Shown here one piece after another: positions 72 through 59,823 of a stretch of 64,000 bases of DNA (positions within the stretch are counted from its first letter, which is position 1; each line of letters begins with the position of its first letter). The notes under the pieces are model-generated. The model worked only from the letters and a program-made list of their open reading frames with translations, made no database searches and had not been told where the DNA came from. The stretch is from a virus, in IMG/VR virus record IMGVR_UViG_3300009130_000011, positions 1 through 64,000 of that record, one strand, 5' to 3'. Position numbers and translations under genes: made by a program.

Positions 72-455
72 TTACCCTCCAGTTATTCTTTTATACTCCT
101 CTGAGTTTCGATCTATTACAGGCCTTGACTCAGACGCGATAGTTCCTATTCTTGCGGCATGAAAAGCCTTCCTGAGCTTATTCCTGAGGATCGGACGTGT
201 ACCAGAAGGAAATACTCCAGCCCTAACAGCCAAGGCCTGCATATCCGTCAGATTCATTTCAGCTATTTTTTGATTAAACTCTTCTTCGTCTTCCGTCCTA
301 AAAGGATTTGAACGAGTGATGCCTATTGCTTTTTCTAACCTGCGAAGCTCCTCTATTTTATCTTCCTTAGTTTGCACTTTTCCATCTGCAAACTCCATAG
401 GCTTCTTGGTTTTACTTGCGCGTGGTTTCTTAGTAGTTTTTGATTTCTTTGGCAT
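72..455 (-). CDS. hypothetical protein downstream of the major capsid gene
   Basis: 127 aa ORF with an AGGAG SD-like motif and a GTGTATA motif upstream. Confidence 0.7.
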   Translation of the reverse strand: MPKKSKTTKKPRASKTKKPMEFADGKVQTKEDKIEELRRLEKAIGITRSNPFRTEDEEEFNQKIAEMNLTDMQALAVRAGVFPSGTRPILRNKLRKAFHAARIGTIASESRPVIDRNSEEYKRITGG

Positions 456-549: not shown

Positions 550-1692
550 TTAAGCGGCGTCAACATGCATACCGTACAGTACGCGGTTGTCGAGGATCAT
601 ACGACCTTCTTCAACCGAACCGTAGTAACCAACTTTTTGCTGGCGGCTAACGAACTGATCATCTGGTACCAAGGAAAGCTCGGCTCCATTGTCAGCGTCG
701 CTGGCAACTGCGCGGACCATCATGTCTGCACGGCTACGATCAATACCAAGGATGAGGTCATCTTTGGTGGCATCAAAATCACCTTGAGCAACAGTCGTTA
801 ATCCACCTCCAGAACCATCAAGAAGACCATGATAGATCTTGGTGTACTTGGCTCCGGGACCAAACTCAAGAGATTCTTGAATGTTGATTCCGTAGAACTC
901 AGGAATTCCGCCGTTAGCATAGATGGACTCACGCATGGAATCTGTAGCAGCAATGCCATCTTCAGTATTAGCTGGAGCACCTCCATCAGCAGCTCTTGTA
1001 TTTACTGGATTGTATGCCATCTCGCGAAGGTTTTCAACAACCTCTGGAGAAACGATAAGGTCAGTAATTCCGCTTACTCCACCTACTGGTGTTCCGCCTG
1101 TCCAAGAAGTGTGAATTCTCTTGGAAACGGTAAGCATTTTATTAAAGTCGTGAAGAAGAACGCGGCCTTTTTGCGTGTTTGATAGTGTGTGACTAACGCT
1201 ATTTGTTTTAGCCTTAGAAAGCACCGACAAGATCATATTGGCAGAAGTCGACTCCATTTTAAGGAGAAGTTCTTGAGCCATACGAGTGAATGTCTTACTT
1301 AAAACATCCATCCGAGAGCGTGCGACATACTTCTTATCGAAGCTAAGTGCGCTGTCCAGACGATAAGTCGTGAACTTGAGCTCTTGAGTTGTTGGAGCAA
1401 CTTGATTGCTGGGAAGACCACCGGGGGCATTTTGGCTCCAGATTTCGATGTAATCTTCGTCAGTAATGTCGAAGTACAAATCCAGAGGAATGCTGGGGTT
1501 GTCGTCAGCAGTGAAGCTTAGCGTTTTAAACATGTTGCTCAAAGTAGGAGCTTGCTGGATTACCTCAGCGAGCACAGGCGCAATGAATTCTGCAAGGGCG
1601 GCTTGTGCTTCATAAGCAACGTCCCTGTCCTTGGAGGCCATTGCCTTTACGAGTTCGAGCTGTTCTTCTGTTCTTTTGAGTGTGATATTCAT
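550..1692 (-). CDS. major capsid protein (HK97-fold, inferred)
   Basis: 380 aa; last gene of the terminase-portal-protease-decoration-MCP order; followed by a strong terminator. Confidence 0.75.
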   Translation of the reverse strand: MNITLKRTEEQLELVKAMASKDRDVAYEAQAALAEFIAPVLAEVIQQAPTLSNMFKTLSFTADDNPSIPLDLYFDITDEDYIEIWSQNAPGGLPSNQVAPTTQELKFTTYRLDSALSFDKKYVARSRMDVLSKTFTRMAQELLLKMESTSANMILSVLSKAKTNSVSHTLSNTQKGRVLLHDFNKMLTVSKRIHTSWTGGTPVGGVSGITDLIVSPEVVENLREMAYNPVNTRAADGGAPANTEDGIAATDSMRESIYANGGIPEFYGINIQESLEFGPGAKYTKIYHGLLDGSGGGLTTVAQGDFDATKDDLILGIDRSRADMMVRAVASDADNGAELSLVPDDQFVSRQQKVGYYGSVEEGRMILDNRVLYGMHVDAA

Positions 1693-4065: not shown

Positions 4066-6108
4066 TTATTCTTCAGAGTGATATAGAATTGCCGAAGGGT
4101 ACTGCTCTAACTCATGGGTAGCAGAAATATCAAGGACTCCTTGTATTGAGGATAGCTTTTCCAGTTCATCAATATTTTTTATGCACGCATCAACAGAAGA
4201 TTCCCATTCATCTTTTTCTTTTGCGCACACAACAGCTTCAACAAAGCTATCAAGCATTTCGCTCTGCTGCTTGTTAAGCCTCTTTACTGAAAATTTATCT
4301 TTAATACTCTTTGTAGCGTGAGATCTCAAAGACTCTATTTTATATACAGTTTCTTGAATATTCTTTCTGCTATAATTTGGCCTACCAGATTCAGACGCAG
4401 TTGCACCCGGCGGACGCCCGTTTTGATTGGGAGTTACCTGCTGATTAAGATTTTGAGGTGCAGCTGGAGCGGGTTTAGACTTTATTGCTTTCTCTTTAAT
4501 CTCTCTTTCTTCTTCAGCGCCAGCAGCTTCAACAGCGGGCACTCCGCCAACCAGAGGATTATAATAACCCTTCTCCCTTTCCTTTGTATATTGTTCTTGA
4601 GCAGGAGACAGCTCTTCTGGCTTCGGATAAATTCCGGTTTTTATTACGTCTACCCCTTGCTGAGGAGTAAGTATACCAATTTCCATAAGTCTCGTAGCCA
4701 CTCTTTGAAGCTGAACTTCGTCCTTTATATCTAGTTGCTCAAATCTTGCTGCAGGAAATTTTCTGAATCCCAGATTTCTACATATTAGTTTTATTTGTGG
4801 CTGAATAAAATCATGAATAAAAGCGTGTCTAGCTTCTTTTAATCTTTCTAAGAATATCTCTGCCTTAACCTGAGTGTTTGCAAATTTTTCATTACCAACT
4901 ACTACATTCTGTAGGCCTTCCCTAATATCATTGTTAACAATTTCATACTTGTCGGGGCCAATTATTTTTGATATATCAGGTATAATAAATTCTGCTTCTG
5001 TAGTATAGTCACTAACCAGCACCCTGCCCACGCTTTCGTTTTGGAAGAGCGCTTGCATCGCATGTAAGTTGTTTGCATTAATACCTCCTTTATCAGGCTC
5101 GGCGCCCATTGTTATAAGGAGTATTACATTTTCAATTGTTCTGCTTACTGCTTGATCAATCTTTTTAAGTTCTAGCTTCCAGTTAATATCATCTAATACA
5201 GGAAACCCAAAAGGCACGGCAAAAGGCTCGTAGTCTTGTTTTTTATAAAAACTATAAGAAAGTTTCTCAGGTTCTAAATCTATATAAATTCCTGTGTCTA
5301 GAAATTGACCCTTTTTAATTTCAGCTTTCTTTTCTTCTGGAAGCGCGTCAAATATTGCCTTATCTTCTTCTGTCGTTGGGTTTCTTAATCGCTCGAGATC
5401 ATACTTCGACAAAACCTTCCTAAAGTTAGACCCAGAAAATGAGGTCTTTGGCTTCATGGCAATATCAAAAGGATTCAAAAGAATATATTTTATTGGAATA
5501 TGATTTGCCTTAAGCTGTCCGGCTGCGCCGTACACTTTAGTCAATTTAGCAAAGTCTTCTGTGCTGAATTTTCCATCAATTCTATATAGAAAAATATTCC
5601 CCGTTTTATAGTATTCCCTAAAATACTGATCTTTTAAGCTCCAGATATTTATTTTCTCAAACCACTTCTCCACAAAAGCTCGAGCTTTTTCTGAGCCTCC
5701 TTCCAACTTTATTTCAGAGTTAGTCAACTCCGACATAATGTCAATAGCGTTCTTGAATATAGAGATATTTGCGTAAGCTTTTTGACATAAATCTATTGTA
5801 TCTTTTATGTTTATTCCATCTGCTCCATACTCATAAGGAAGCATTCCTTTTCTTATGTTAGCGAATCGCCGCTCCTTATCCCCAGATGTAATTGCATTGC
5901 GCCTGCCAAGTGTTCTAGTGCCTTCACTAGTTTTCCTGACATATGATGAGGCATCAGCTTCTATATAATAAGGTTGCCCTGCGGACTGAGGCTCAGTATC
6001 TTCCGCTTTTGTTTTAAAGAAGTCCTCTACAGACCCTACTCCTTCACCCTTGTCTTGATCGAACTTATCCCAATAAGAAGACTTTTTATTATACTTTCTT
6101 TTTGCCAT
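4066..6108 (-). CDS. portal protein (putative)
   Basis: 680 aa between large terminase and protease; EYYKTGNIFLY and PFAVPFGFPVL portal-like segments. Confidence 0.7.
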   Translation of the reverse strand: MAKRKYNKKSSYWDKFDQDKGEGVGSVEDFFKTKAEDTEPQSAGQPYYIEADASSYVRKTSEGTRTLGRRNAITSGDKERRFANIRKGMLPYEYGADGINIKDTIDLCQKAYANISIFKNAIDIMSELTNSEIKLEGGSEKARAFVEKWFEKINIWSLKDQYFREYYKTGNIFLYRIDGKFSTEDFAKLTKVYGAAGQLKANHIPIKYILLNPFDIAMKPKTSFSGSNFRKVLSKYDLERLRNPTTEEDKAIFDALPEEKKAEIKKGQFLDTGIYIDLEPEKLSYSFYKKQDYEPFAVPFGFPVLDDINWKLELKKIDQAVSRTIENVILLITMGAEPDKGGINANNLHAMQALFQNESVGRVLVSDYTTEAEFIIPDISKIIGPDKYEIVNNDIREGLQNVVVGNEKFANTQVKAEIFLERLKEARHAFIHDFIQPQIKLICRNLGFRKFPAARFEQLDIKDEVQLQRVATRLMEIGILTPQQGVDVIKTGIYPKPEELSPAQEQYTKEREKGYYNPLVGGVPAVEAAGAEEEREIKEKAIKSKPAPAAPQNLNQQVTPNQNGRPPGATASESGRPNYSRKNIQETVYKIESLRSHATKSIKDKFSVKRLNKQQSEMLDSFVEAVVCAKEKDEWESSVDACIKNIDELEKLSSIQGVLDISATHELEQYPSAILYHSEE

Positions 6109-15556: not shown

Positions 15557-15623
15557 TAAGTCGTTGACTATCAGCCGGTTAGCCGGCGCAGGGCGGCGTA
15601 AGTCCTTCATTGCCAATGACTTA
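15557..15623. repeat. 67-bp palindromic element, copy 1
   Basis: TAAGTCGTTGACTATCAGCCGGTTA-GCCGGCGCAGGGCGGCG-TAAGTCCTTCATTGCCAATGACTTA. Confidence 0.9.
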
Positions 15624-17063: not shown

Positions 17064-17264
17064 ATGGAAAATACTGATTCACTCGACCGCACCGCCCACG
17101 CCTTCGGCATGACCGATCTCGAATTTGAGGAACGCTCTCAAGTCGAGGCTGAGATTGCCGCCCAACAAGTCATCCGTAGATGGCAAGAAGAGGAGCAGAT
17201 CCTCAGAGAGTCCTTTGAAGCTCTCAGCCTCTTTGACGAAGAGGAAAACCCCCATCTCTTCTGA
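17064..17264 (+). CDS. acidic early protein; N-terminus shared with 19849..20073
   Basis: DSLDRTAHAFGMTDLEF. Confidence 0.7.
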   Translation: MENTDSLDRTAHAFGMTDLEFEERSQVEAEIAAQQVIRRWQEEEQILRESFEALSLFDEEENPHLF

Positions 17265-17268
17265 CGGG

Positions 17269-17285
17269 TTGGCACGCTTCTTGAA
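17269..17285 (+). promoter_or_regulatory. sigma54-like -24/-12 motif
   Basis: TTGGCACGCTTCTTGAA, 28 bp before element 3. Confidence 0.6.
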
Positions 17286-17296
17286 CGGCCCTTTTA

Positions 17297-17363
17297 TAAG
17301 TCGTTCATAATCAAGGGCTTAGGCCGCCCTGAGCGAGCTAAGTAGCTGATAGCCAAGGACTTA
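17297..17363. repeat. 67-bp palindromic element, copy 3
   Basis: TAAGTCGTTCATAATCAAGGGCTTA-GGCCGCCCTGAGCGAGC-TAAGTAGCTGATAGCCAAGGACTTA. Confidence 0.9.
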
Positions 17364-17424
17364 CGACGCAAAAAAAGTTAAAAAAGTTCTTGACTTTTCG
17401 GGGTTGCTGTGCTATGTTATAGGT

Positions 17425-17483
17425 ATGATTAAGAAAATCCCAAACTAAGAGCCGTAGAATGGCGGGACGTGGCTCCCCGCAGA
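17425..17483 (+). ncRNA. micro-ORF (MIKKIPN*) plus pseudoknot unit, copy A
   Basis: own sigma70 promoter at 17390; GAGCC/GGCTC and GCGGG/CCCGC interleaved helices. Confidence 0.6.
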
Positions 17484-17544
17484 TCACCAAAAAAAACTTA
17501 AAATAATCCTTGACTTTTAGCCCAAACTCCGTTAACTTATAAGT

Positions 17545-17663
17545 ATGAAAATGAAAATCCCCAACTAAGCGCCGTATAAGTCGGGACGTGGCGCCCCGAA
17601 GATTATGAAAATGAAAACCCCCAACTAAGAGCCGTAGAACGGCGGGACGTGGCTCCCCGCAGA
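17545..17663 (+). ncRNA. micro-ORF plus pseudoknot units, copies B (MKMKIPN*) and C (MKMKTPN*), tandem with a 60-nt period
   Basis: promoter at 17510; copy B shows compensatory changes GCGCC/GGCGC and TCGGG/CCCGA. Confidence 0.6.
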
Positions 17664-17669
17664 GTTTGG

Positions 17670-17736
17670 TAACCCTCTTATAATCAAGGACTTACGCCGC
17701 CCCTGTCCGCGTAAGCGGTTGAATACCAAAGACTTA
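17670..17736. repeat. 67-bp palindromic element, copy 4
   Basis: TAACCCTCTTATAATCAAGGACTTA-CGCCGCCCCTGTCCGCG-TAAGCGGTTGAATACCAAAGACTTA. Confidence 0.88.
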
Positions 17737-17747
17737 TGAAACATAAG

Positions 17748-17764
17748 TACAGAAATCATGCCAA
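17748..17764 (-). promoter_or_regulatory. sigma54-like -24/-12 motif
   Basis: reverse complement TTGGCATGATTTCTGTA, 28 bp from element 4. Confidence 0.5.
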
Positions 17765-17842
17765 TTCATGCGATAGGATAGTGCAAAAAATTAGTTGAAA
17801 GTTTTTCTTGACTTTTGGCGTTTTTTGGGTTATGTTGTAGAC

Positions 17843-17938
17843 ATGAAATTAACTGAAAGAGAAAAAATCCTCCTCGCAATCGTCCTTCCTAAAAAGGAAA
17901 AAAAAGCAAAAAAAAGTTTGCAATTCCGCCAAAACTAG
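17843..17938 (+). CDS. 31-aa leaderless small protein (MKLTEREKILLAIVLPKK...)
   Basis: TTGACT at 17808, ATG 35 nt later; below the ORF-track cutoff. Confidence 0.5.
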   Translation: MKLTEREKILLAIVLPKKEKKAKKSLQFRQN

Positions 17939-18624: not shown

Positions 18625-18641
18625 TTGGCACGCTTCTTGAA
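18625..18641 (+). promoter_or_regulatory. sigma54-like -24/-12 motif
   Basis: TTGGCACGCTTCTTGAA, 28 bp before element 5. Confidence 0.6.
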
Positions 18642-18652
18642 CGGCTGTTTCA

Positions 18653-19848: not shown

Positions 19849-20073
19849 ATGATTAACGAAAACGATTCCCTCGCCCGCACCGCCCACGCCTTCGGCATGA
19901 CTGATGTCGAATTTACCGCCCGCCACGGGTTCGCCCCCGTGGACGATCTCCCGCTCCCGCCTCCTCCTGCGGGCTTCACGGTCTCGCCCAGCGGAGCCAT
20001 CCGCGAGGCTAGCCCCGAGGAACTCAGCGACTGGGTCGCTGAGGATATCCTCAACGGAGAGTTTGACGACTAG
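19849..20073 (+). CDS. acidic early protein; N-terminus shared with 17064..17264
   Basis: DSLARTAHAFGMTDVEF; promoter at 19814. Confidence 0.7.
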   Translation: MINENDSLARTAHAFGMTDVEFTARHGFAPVDDLPLPPPPAGFTVSPSGAIREASPEELSDWVAEDILNGEFDD

Positions 20074-30198: not shown

Positions 30199-30443
30199 GC
30201 TTTATATACTGACAGAATAACCCGCAAAGTCAACAACAAAAAAACCCCCACCTGCGATAAATTAAACAGGTGAGGGTCGGAGGAGTGGGAAAGTGTTCCA
30301 CGCTTTTATGTAGTTACGGGAAAGGCGATGAAATAACCAGACTACGAAATCCGCTACAATACCTTTTACATACCCCATCAACGAAAGGAGGTCGATTTGG
30401 TCGTTTCAGTCCAAATGCAACCTATACTATGAGAATAAATAGA

Positions 30444-30631
30444 TGTGGGGGAGGACTACTGAATACCTCCAACTTTTCGGCGTGAACATCAGTTCAATGG
30501 TGTACCTACTTCGAACTACAGACTAGACTTGGTATTTGTCTTTTGGCTCATCCGATTGGACTCTGCCATCCCCACCACAGGGGTCTGCATACCTTAACCC
30601 GCTCACGACAGGTTTATTCGAGTCACCCACA
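30444..30631 (-). ncRNA. candidate structured ncRNA
   Basis: GC-richer stretch with no convincing ORF, downstream of TTGACA-17-TATGAT (30726-30754); terminal TGTGGG/CCCACA pairing and internal helices. Confidence 0.4.
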
Positions 30632-30767
30632 GGAAGGATTATAAGCCCTTCCAAAGTGTTTAAAATGTTAAAGATCAATTTATTTTATTTATTTGAGTTT
30701 GGTTCTCAATTTTGATTATTTATATATCATACTACATTATTTGATATTTGTCAAGTATTATTTTTTA

Positions 30768-55668: not shown

Positions 55669-55753
55669 TGGTGCGGATGGTGGGAATCGAACCCACACTC
55701 CCAAGGGAAACGGATTTTAAGTCCGTAGCGTCTACCAATTCCGCCACATCCGC
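55669..55753 (-). tRNA. tRNA-Leu(TAA)
   Basis: GCGGATG...ACGGA-CTTAAAA-TCCGT, long variable arm, GGTTCGATTCC, encoded CCA. Confidence 0.95.
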
Positions 55754-59747: not shown

Positions 59748-59823
59748 TGGAGCCACCTGTCAGGATCGAACTGACGACATCCTCATTACAAGTGAGGTGC
59801 TCTACCATCTGAGCTAAGGTGGC
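59748..59823 (-). tRNA. tRNA-Thr(TGT)
   Basis: GCCACCT...CCTCA-CTTGTAA-TGAGG...GTCAGTTCGATCCTGAC AGGTGGC TCCA. Confidence 0.95.

Follow-up and report, generated by a model that had tools for sequence, protein, structure and literature searches.

Arrays of seven-codon reading frames, each abutting a covarying two-helix RNA fold, in the early region of uncultured marine phages

The stretch of DNA analysed here, referred to as the window, is the first 64 kb of the 102.7-kb IMG/VR virus record IMGVR_UViG_3300009130_000011. In its early region lie three copies, A, B and C, of a unit in which an open reading frame (ORF) of seven codons is followed directly by an RNA segment with two interleaved helices, S1 and S2. 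Comparison of these copies with homologues from other marine viral and metagenomic sequences shows the ORF to bear the signature of translation, with its predicted product M-x-x-K-I-P-N under purifying selection. By the same kind of comparison, the two helices, which start at the base after the stop codon, are shown to be under selection as well. We are highly confident of this descriptive core, that is, of a translated and conserved heptapeptide ORF joined to a selected two-helix fold and arranged in arrays. The units have no counterpart among curated RNA families or in the searchable literature, and the combination of heptapeptide mini-genes with a covarying two-helix fold is not previously described. 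How the units act is discussed below, at lower levels of confidence.

Selection on the peptide and on the fold

The three units of the window (Table 1) are built alike. After each TAA, without any spacer, the order is S1 5' arm, loop L1, S2 5' arm, loop L2, S1 3' arm and S2 3' arm, so that S1 pairs the five bases after the stop codon with five bases located 15–18 nucleotides (nt) downstream. In fold A, L1 has 8 nt, L2 has 4 nt and the third loop, L3, has 0 nt. Units B and C are tandem with a 60-nt period (repeat family D3); micro-ORF C starts 5 nt past fold B and is without a promoter of its own. Of the six positions at which fold B differs from folds A and C, four belong to two compensatory pairs, one per helix: in S1, A-U has become C-G, and in S2, G-C has become U-A. 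A first-pass annotation of this DNA had placed the three units at 17425, 17545 and 17605, each with its seven-codon ORF, its TAA and its interleaved helices, in a cassette of their own between the palindromic elements 3 and 4. It had also described the compensated helices of copy B and the tandem period of B and C. All of this is exact when checked against the sequence. The same annotation had assigned a sigma70 promoter with a leaderless ATG to both A and B. For A, a consensus scan finds the promoter, and with 6 nt between the -10 box and the ATG the transcript is predicted to be leaderless. The promoter of B and C falls one match under the threshold of that scan but shares its layout with about 14 further promoters of the region; it is aligned with promoter A by repeat D7 and is kept in the relatives L103, L104 and L143. 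No intrinsic terminator was found after the units on the plus strand.

Two interleaved helices of 5 + 5 base pairs (bp) occur by chance at about 40 places in this genome, nearly all of them AT-rich. Therefore, a single copy proves nothing, and the case had to rest on homologues. Two of the checks that the first-pass annotation had proposed, a search of Rfam and a custom covariance model, were run. No Rfam 15 family matched the units: 17200–17900 stayed without a match even at E ≤ 10, and the ToxI model did not reach its gathering score anywhere in the window. A first covariance model was built from copies A, B and C, and units were found in two related viral contigs. Looser DNA patterns, applied to IMG/VR and once to a metagenome collection, gave 35 further loci, all from marine samples. 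With a second covariance model, the collection grew to 99 units, of which 67 are distinct, from 37 loci of marine viral or metagenomic origin; the phage's own genome gave no further match. Among 79 other loci neighbouring PhoH genes, there was no model match at E ≤ 0.01, and the only matches in the 1.15 Mb of the PhoH-neighbour search were the three units of locus L023. A blastn search with 17200–17900 found no match among 50,697 phage records. Two strict pattern scans of 185,579 prokaryote genomes found no units either, which is uninformative for hosts without a genome in that set. Two further pattern searches of IMG/VR were rejected as sources of homologues: when the conserved S2/S1 core was sought with an exact scan, the 8 loci obtained were all GC-rich DNA that matched by chance, and an ORF-only pattern gave 12 extra loci, all AT-rich chance matches without the fold.

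Micro-ORF: The homologues comprise 43 distinct ORFs of 24 nt, all of which start with ATG. In 41 of them the stop is TAA, and in the other two a CAA shifts the stop three codons on. The length is exactly seven codons in 60 of the 65 distinct full units and eight codons in two. Over codons 4–7, the entropy at codon positions 1, 2 and 3 is 0.45, 0.47 and 1.07, respectively, and the synonymous share of single-base codon differences is 59% in frame as compared with 9% and 21% in the other two frames. The consensus peptide is M-[I/K/L]-[M/K/L]-K-I-P-N. Residue 6 is either Pro (CCC or CCA) or Ser, and Ser is spelled both AGC and TCC. The last codon encodes Asn in 38 of the 43 ORFs and Thr, His or Ile in the remaining five; Thr-ended units are found in three adjacent copies. 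The ORF is the most highly conserved part of the unit. Its variation follows the codon period and is largely synonymous, so that selection acts on the peptide or on the nascent chain. Hence, the units are not purely non-coding RNA.

The two ORFs with the shifted stop are found at 4766–4821 (minus strand) of L092 and 1109–1164 (plus strand) of L102, in each case in the last unit before a gene of the AFWQDK family. CAA replaces the stop codon, and the ORF becomes three codons longer (…PNQGL and stop), ending inside loop L1. On such a unit, the ribosome would extend into S2, which may represent a natural variant of the gating proposed below. In L142, at 89–147 (plus strand), an insertion of 1 nt breaks the seven-codon frame and leaves the fold intact; this unit may be a decaying copy or the result of a sequencing error.

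S1 helix: S1 is paired in 100% of the 66 distinct rows of the alignment and occurs as seven helix types, with double-sided changes at all five of its pairs. Its covariation score is 0.413, as compared with 0.106 in shuffles and at most 0.115 in controls with a slid partner; none of the 500 shuffles reaches the observed covariation. When the partner arm is slid by 1–3 columns, pairing drops from 88% to 34–46%.

S2 helix: The core of S2, GGG/CCC, is invariant at its three pairs and says nothing either way. In its extensions, two pairs covary in at least two independent lineages, with G-C/U-A changes in one unit type and A-U/G-C changes in another. The selected RNA structure that the first-pass annotation had read from copy B is strongly confirmed by this covariation across 67 distinct homologues.

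Loops and spacing: Loop lengths are constrained, with 4–8 nt in L1 (growing with the length of S2), 3–4 nt in L2 and 0–1 nt in L3; among the distinct units, 38 have an L3 of 0 nt and 26 one of 1 nt. By Pleij-type loop rules, the third loop of a classical, stacked H-type pseudoknot must cross S1. Because L3 has only 0–1 nt, this classical geometry is, by the standard rules, not available. The fold is, therefore, either an unusual pseudoknot or a pair of alternative states, S1 and S2, which covariation cannot separate. The term pseudoknot in the first-pass annotation holds for the interleaved, covarying helices; in the sense of two helices formed at once, it is doubtful. The distance from the AUG to S1 is fixed at 24 nt, and the 5' arm of S2 begins at nt 34–38 in units of 56–60 nt. 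Sequence varies freely in loops and helices except for the GGG/CCC core, a GAC preceding it and a short ...GAU tail. Adjacent units differ in the sequence of their S1 helix in 34 of 43 neighbouring pairs, a divergence that would prevent mispairing between tandem copies.

On the evidence of the sequence, recoding was rejected. Some units contain CCCAAAC, which looks like a slippery heptamer, but the majority are non-slippery at this place, and copies A, B and C show no conservation of the -1 and +1 frames across the fold.

Organization of the arrays and of the early region

The homologous units form 38 distinct arrays, of which 9 hold one unit, 19 hold two, 8 hold three and 2 hold five tandem units. 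Every array follows immediately on a promoter, and its start is either leaderless or preceded by a short purine-rich leader. The first unit stands at the predicted transcription start or behind this leader, which fits translation of both forms. At some loci (e.g., L132, L135 and L142), two or three blocks of promoter plus array are chained. The many copies and promoters point to a product that is needed in quantity.

Downstream of the array, a cassette-end palindrome follows in 15 of the 38 cases, the next promoter in 10 and a small gene without a Shine-Dalgarno sequence in another 10, these genes belonging to at least five unrelated families; three arrays are cut by a contig end. As 25 of the 38 arrays are without a following gene, the unit module is autonomous: it can ride before a gene, and most often it is the sole content of its cassette. 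In relatives, the last unit of a palindrome-ended array is nearly always of the type with CGCCC as S1 5' arm and GAGG/CCTC as S2, which hints at a functional link between this unit type and the palindromic element.

The phage is an uncultured one of marine type. Its gene content includes a PhoH gene, a manA RNA motif, known from marine phages and bacteria, and two tRNA genes. Its large terminase is at most 27% identical to that of any phage record, and no cultured relative was found. From about 14.4 to 20.1 kb, the window holds a region of small genes on the plus strand with one promoter per gene. The promoter layout is fixed (TTGACT or TTGCAA, 17 nt, TAnnTT, 6 nt, ATG), and because it puts the ATG 6 nt after the -10 box, the transcripts of this region are predicted to be leaderless. 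Quasi-palindromes of 67 bp divide the early cassettes.

Table 1 Features of the unit cassette and further RNA features of the window
Feature	Position	Strand	Remarks
Element 3, 67-bp quasi-palindrome closing the upstream cassette	17297..17363		Repeat families D5, D6
Promoter of unit A	17390..17418	+	-35 TTGACT, 17 nt, TG-extended -10 TATGTT; consensus scan
Micro-ORF A	17425..17448	+	MIKKIPN, 7 codons + TAA
Fold A	17449..17480	+	S1 17449-17453/17471-17475; S2 17462-17466/17476-17480
Promoter of units B-C	17510..17538	+	TTGACT, 17 nt, TAACTT, 6 nt, ATG; from the sequence
Micro-ORF B	17545..17568	+	MKMKIPN and stop
Fold B	17569..17599	+	S1 17569-17573/17590-17594; S2 17581-17585/17595-17599
Micro-ORF C	17605..17628	+	MKMKTPN and stop
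Fold C	17629..17660	+	S1 17629-17633/17651-17655; S2 17642-17646/17656-17660
Element 4, 67-bp quasi-palindrome ending the unit cassette	17670..17736		Repeat D5, inverted repeat I1
manA RNA motif	30440-30652	-	85.9 bits; gathering score 55.2
tRNA-Leu(TAA) gene	55669-55753	-	
tRNA-Thr(TGT) gene	59748-59823	-	

We noticed further regularities around the unit cassette. The quasi-palindromic elements (about 67 bp each) lie at 15557, 16355, 17297, 17670, 18653, 19668, 20078 and 21453. An ATG 6–7 nt past the -10 box is found at nearly every early gene between 14990 and 19860 and also at many minus-strand genes out to about 56 kb, and most larger genes are likewise without a Shine-Dalgarno sequence. 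The position of the ATG and the scarcity of Shine-Dalgarno sequences suggest a host in which initiation that is leaderless or independent of this sequence is the norm. A repeated string, TTGGCACG-N4-TTGAAC, occurs at 17269-17290 and 18625-18646 (repeat D6), just upstream of two palindromic elements, with a spacing like that of sigma-54 promoters (-24/-12). The small early ORFs at 17064-17264 and 19849-20073 are paralogues with a common N-terminal motif (17064-17150 and 19849-19915), and each has its own leaderless promoter.

A possible mechanism and the rival explanations

In the mechanism that we propose, each unit would be a self-contained, ribosome-gated mini-cistron, and an array would stand in the place of an early 'gene'. 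A ribosome would load at the 5'-terminal AUG, or at an AUG after the purine-rich leader of about 15–20 nt, translate the seven codons and terminate at the UAA. Toeprinting places the 3' edge of the ribosome about +15 from the P site, so that a ribosome holding codon 7 there would cover the mRNA to about nt 34 of the unit. Since S1 follows the AUG at 24 nt and S2 begins at nt 34–38, the terminating ribosome would have to melt the whole of S1 (nt 25–29) and would stop just before the 5' arm of S2; an initiating ribosome would leave the entire fold intact. The fold would thus toggle between two states: closed, with S1 and perhaps also S2 formed, and engaged by the ribosome, with only the S2 hairpin left. 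It would also prevent mispairing between units, cap the message and block the forward sliding of the terminated ribosome, which would favour repeated rounds of translation on one 24-nt ORF, as for the mccA message. Translation of ORFs of 2–8 codons is reiterative, and on mccA each ribosome completes about 71 rounds without being released (PMC6495379). The mccA transcript, which is abundant and very stable, has ribosomes bound to it, and the ribosome controls the hairpin downstream of the ORF (PMC4231749). With strong early promoters, as many as five units in tandem and up to three promoters in series, a single formylated heptapeptide would be made in very large amounts early in infection. The effector would be this peptide, either free or as a nascent chain in the ribosome.

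We consider such a ribosome-gated mini-message with reiterative translation, for which mccA is the precedent, to be plausible at somewhat less than an even chance. The broader proposal, a new class of phage early gene in which arrays of ribosome-gated mini-messages deliver a heptapeptide in bulk or a peptide-held ribosome, is more tentative, and we regard it as possible but on balance unlikely. In that case, the peptide would act on a host process, e.g., on translation or on a defence enzyme.

Several observations weigh against this mechanism. Internal units are without a Shine-Dalgarno sequence and would rely on re-initiation or on processing. Free heptapeptides are normally short-lived in cells. 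Residues 4–7 are conserved and residues 2–3 vary, a pattern that also fits a role in nascent-chain arrest. With L3 at 0–1 nt, the formation of both helices at once is sterically doubtful, and when single units were folded as nested structures, the z-scores on either strand stayed at an unremarkable -0.8 to +1.0, a result that is uninformative because the program cannot form interleaved helices. Two marine metatranscriptome runs hold contigs that cover units, one of them of 91 nt consisting of two tandem units only and another of 1.2 kb running from the upstream gene into unit A; such contigs are at most a hint of expression, as they carry no information on strand, ends or level and may stem from DNA carry-over. 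Finally, the cassette is dispensable, since it is missing from the closest relative, L011, with a PhoH 95% identical to that of the phage. In place of window positions 17204-17849, L011 has a recombination joint, where the 5' portion of the gene region at 17064 runs straight into the 3' portion of the ORF region at 17845. The module is, therefore, accessory and moves with the cassette shuffling that is typical of the early region.

Cis-acting leader: The units could instead be leaders in which the heptapeptide serves as an arrest peptide or a sensor, and a paused ribosome switches S1 to S2 and so controls the translation, stability or read-through of downstream sequence, following the logic of erm, cat and tnaC leaders and of attenuators. 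With ermC, cat, tnaC and the leaderless short ORFs of actinobacteria, the units share a short ORF that is translated into a conserved peptide, along with overlapping helices that the ribosome can reach. The conserved residues are the C-terminal K-I-P-N, as in arrest peptides, S1 adjoins the stop codon, and S1 and S2 interleave like attenuator segments and may, at an L3 of 0–1 nt, be mutually exclusive. Ten of the 38 arrays do lie in the 5' leader of small genes without a Shine-Dalgarno sequence. However, most arrays are without a gene to regulate, as 25 of the 38 reach the cassette end or the next promoter first, and the genes that do follow belong to unrelated families. A regulator would not usually come in five tandem copies or with promoters in series, and the S2 hairpin, which has no U-tract, hides neither a start site nor a terminator. 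We therefore regard a cis-acting role as unlikely.

Host-shutoff minigene: A second rival is that massive translation of the short ORFs ties up ribosomes, release or recycling factors, or tRNA, for instance by drop-off of peptidyl-tRNA at the last codon, which is mostly Asn, as with lambda bar in Pth-limited cells. Like bar and the synthetic toxic minigenes, the units are very short, phage-borne ORFs in many copies behind strong early promoters, and effects on tRNA and ribosome pools are possible; minigenes of 3–8 codons sequester tRNA and inhibit protein synthesis (PMC2490762). The preference for Asn in the last sense codon (38 of the 43 distinct ORFs) agrees with this. On the other hand, bar has two codons and neither a conserved peptide nor a conserved downstream fold, and selection in the phage units extends over the whole C-terminal half of the peptide. 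Their length is fixed at seven codons, yet shorter minigenes are more inhibitory (PMC2490762). Shutoff by this route would also harm the phage's own translation, and it leaves the fold unexplained. Such a role is, in our view, rather improbable, even less to be expected than regulation in cis.

RNA fold as effector: The first-pass annotation had inferred a small-RNA effector and offered, among other options, mimicry of type III antitoxin RNAs. In this case, the fold would be a decoy or a sponge for a host RNA-binding protein or endoribonuclease, and the ORF would merely aid folding or stability. Tandem structured repeats behind a promoter, strong covariation and stand-alone cassettes without a protein gene speak for an RNA product. 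Like type III antitoxin RNAs (ToxI, CptI and TenpI) and phage pseudo-ToxI, the units are phage-borne tandem repeats that follow a promoter and show pairing of the pseudoknot type. Known type III antitoxin repeats are non-coding, 34–45 nt long, near-identical within an array and read sequence-specifically by the toxin. The phage units are longer (56–60 nt) and coding, they diverge in their helices between neighbours, and they have no match to ToxI in Rfam and no look-alike in the prokaryote genomes scanned. Helices and loops that vary freely leave little for a specific partner to read. A search for the ToxN family in three phage records found no match but carries no weight, as the control genomes were silent too. 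Of the small-RNA effector, then, the selected RNA structure stands, while the ORF shows selection at the peptide level and the ToxI option is not supported; an RNA effector of this kind seems improbable to us, below both of the preceding alternatives. The option of a ribosome-stalling or ribosome-sponging unit, also named in that annotation, is compatible with the data.

Microcin C-like precursor: Among known systems, a close formal resemblance is that to mccA. Both have a seven-codon ORF that usually ends in Asn, with an RNA structure just downstream that depends on the ribosome (PMC4231749, PMC6495379), and both need a very high output. They differ in that the phage units are without an MccB partner, a strong Shine-Dalgarno sequence and an intrinsic terminator, that they conserve K-I-P where MccA sequences are not conserved, and that they form tandem arrays with two interleaved helices rather than one hairpin. 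A peptide-nucleotide precursor, in which an MccB-type enzyme would adenylate the Asn-ended peptide, is suggested by the match of the seven residues, the N-terminal Met and the usual C-terminal Asn to the MccA class (PMC6495379) and by the RNA structure after the ORF (PMC4231749), but we consider it very improbable and reject membership of the microcin C family, as searches of G000, G002 (95% complete), G003, G006 and G007, with positive controls, revealed no gene of the ThiF/MccB family, neither in the genome of the window nor in a unit-carrying relative that is 95% complete, and the terminal Asn is not invariant.

What the units may mean for phage biology

Seven-codon genes are invisible to annotation. 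Here, such genes carry selection both on the peptide and on an RNA structure, they occur in arrays, and these arrays are driven by the strongest early promoters of a widespread group of uncultured marine phages. The only comparable tiny translated ORFs that we found are mccA and the lambda bar minigenes, and by analogy the units may be akin to translated minigenes with a ribosome-coupled RNA structure.

If the peptide is the effector, it would join the short list of directly translated functional peptides of this small size and would represent a new tool of host takeover. If the ribosome is the target, the unit would be a natural ribosome trap. Should the reading as a new class of early gene be true, these would be the first dedicated heptapeptide-producing RNA arrays known in a virus. 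The unit also offers a compact model for a terminating ribosome that meets an RNA fold at its leading edge, and the pairing of an ORF of fixed length with an abutting fold provides a search image for hidden mini-genes elsewhere.
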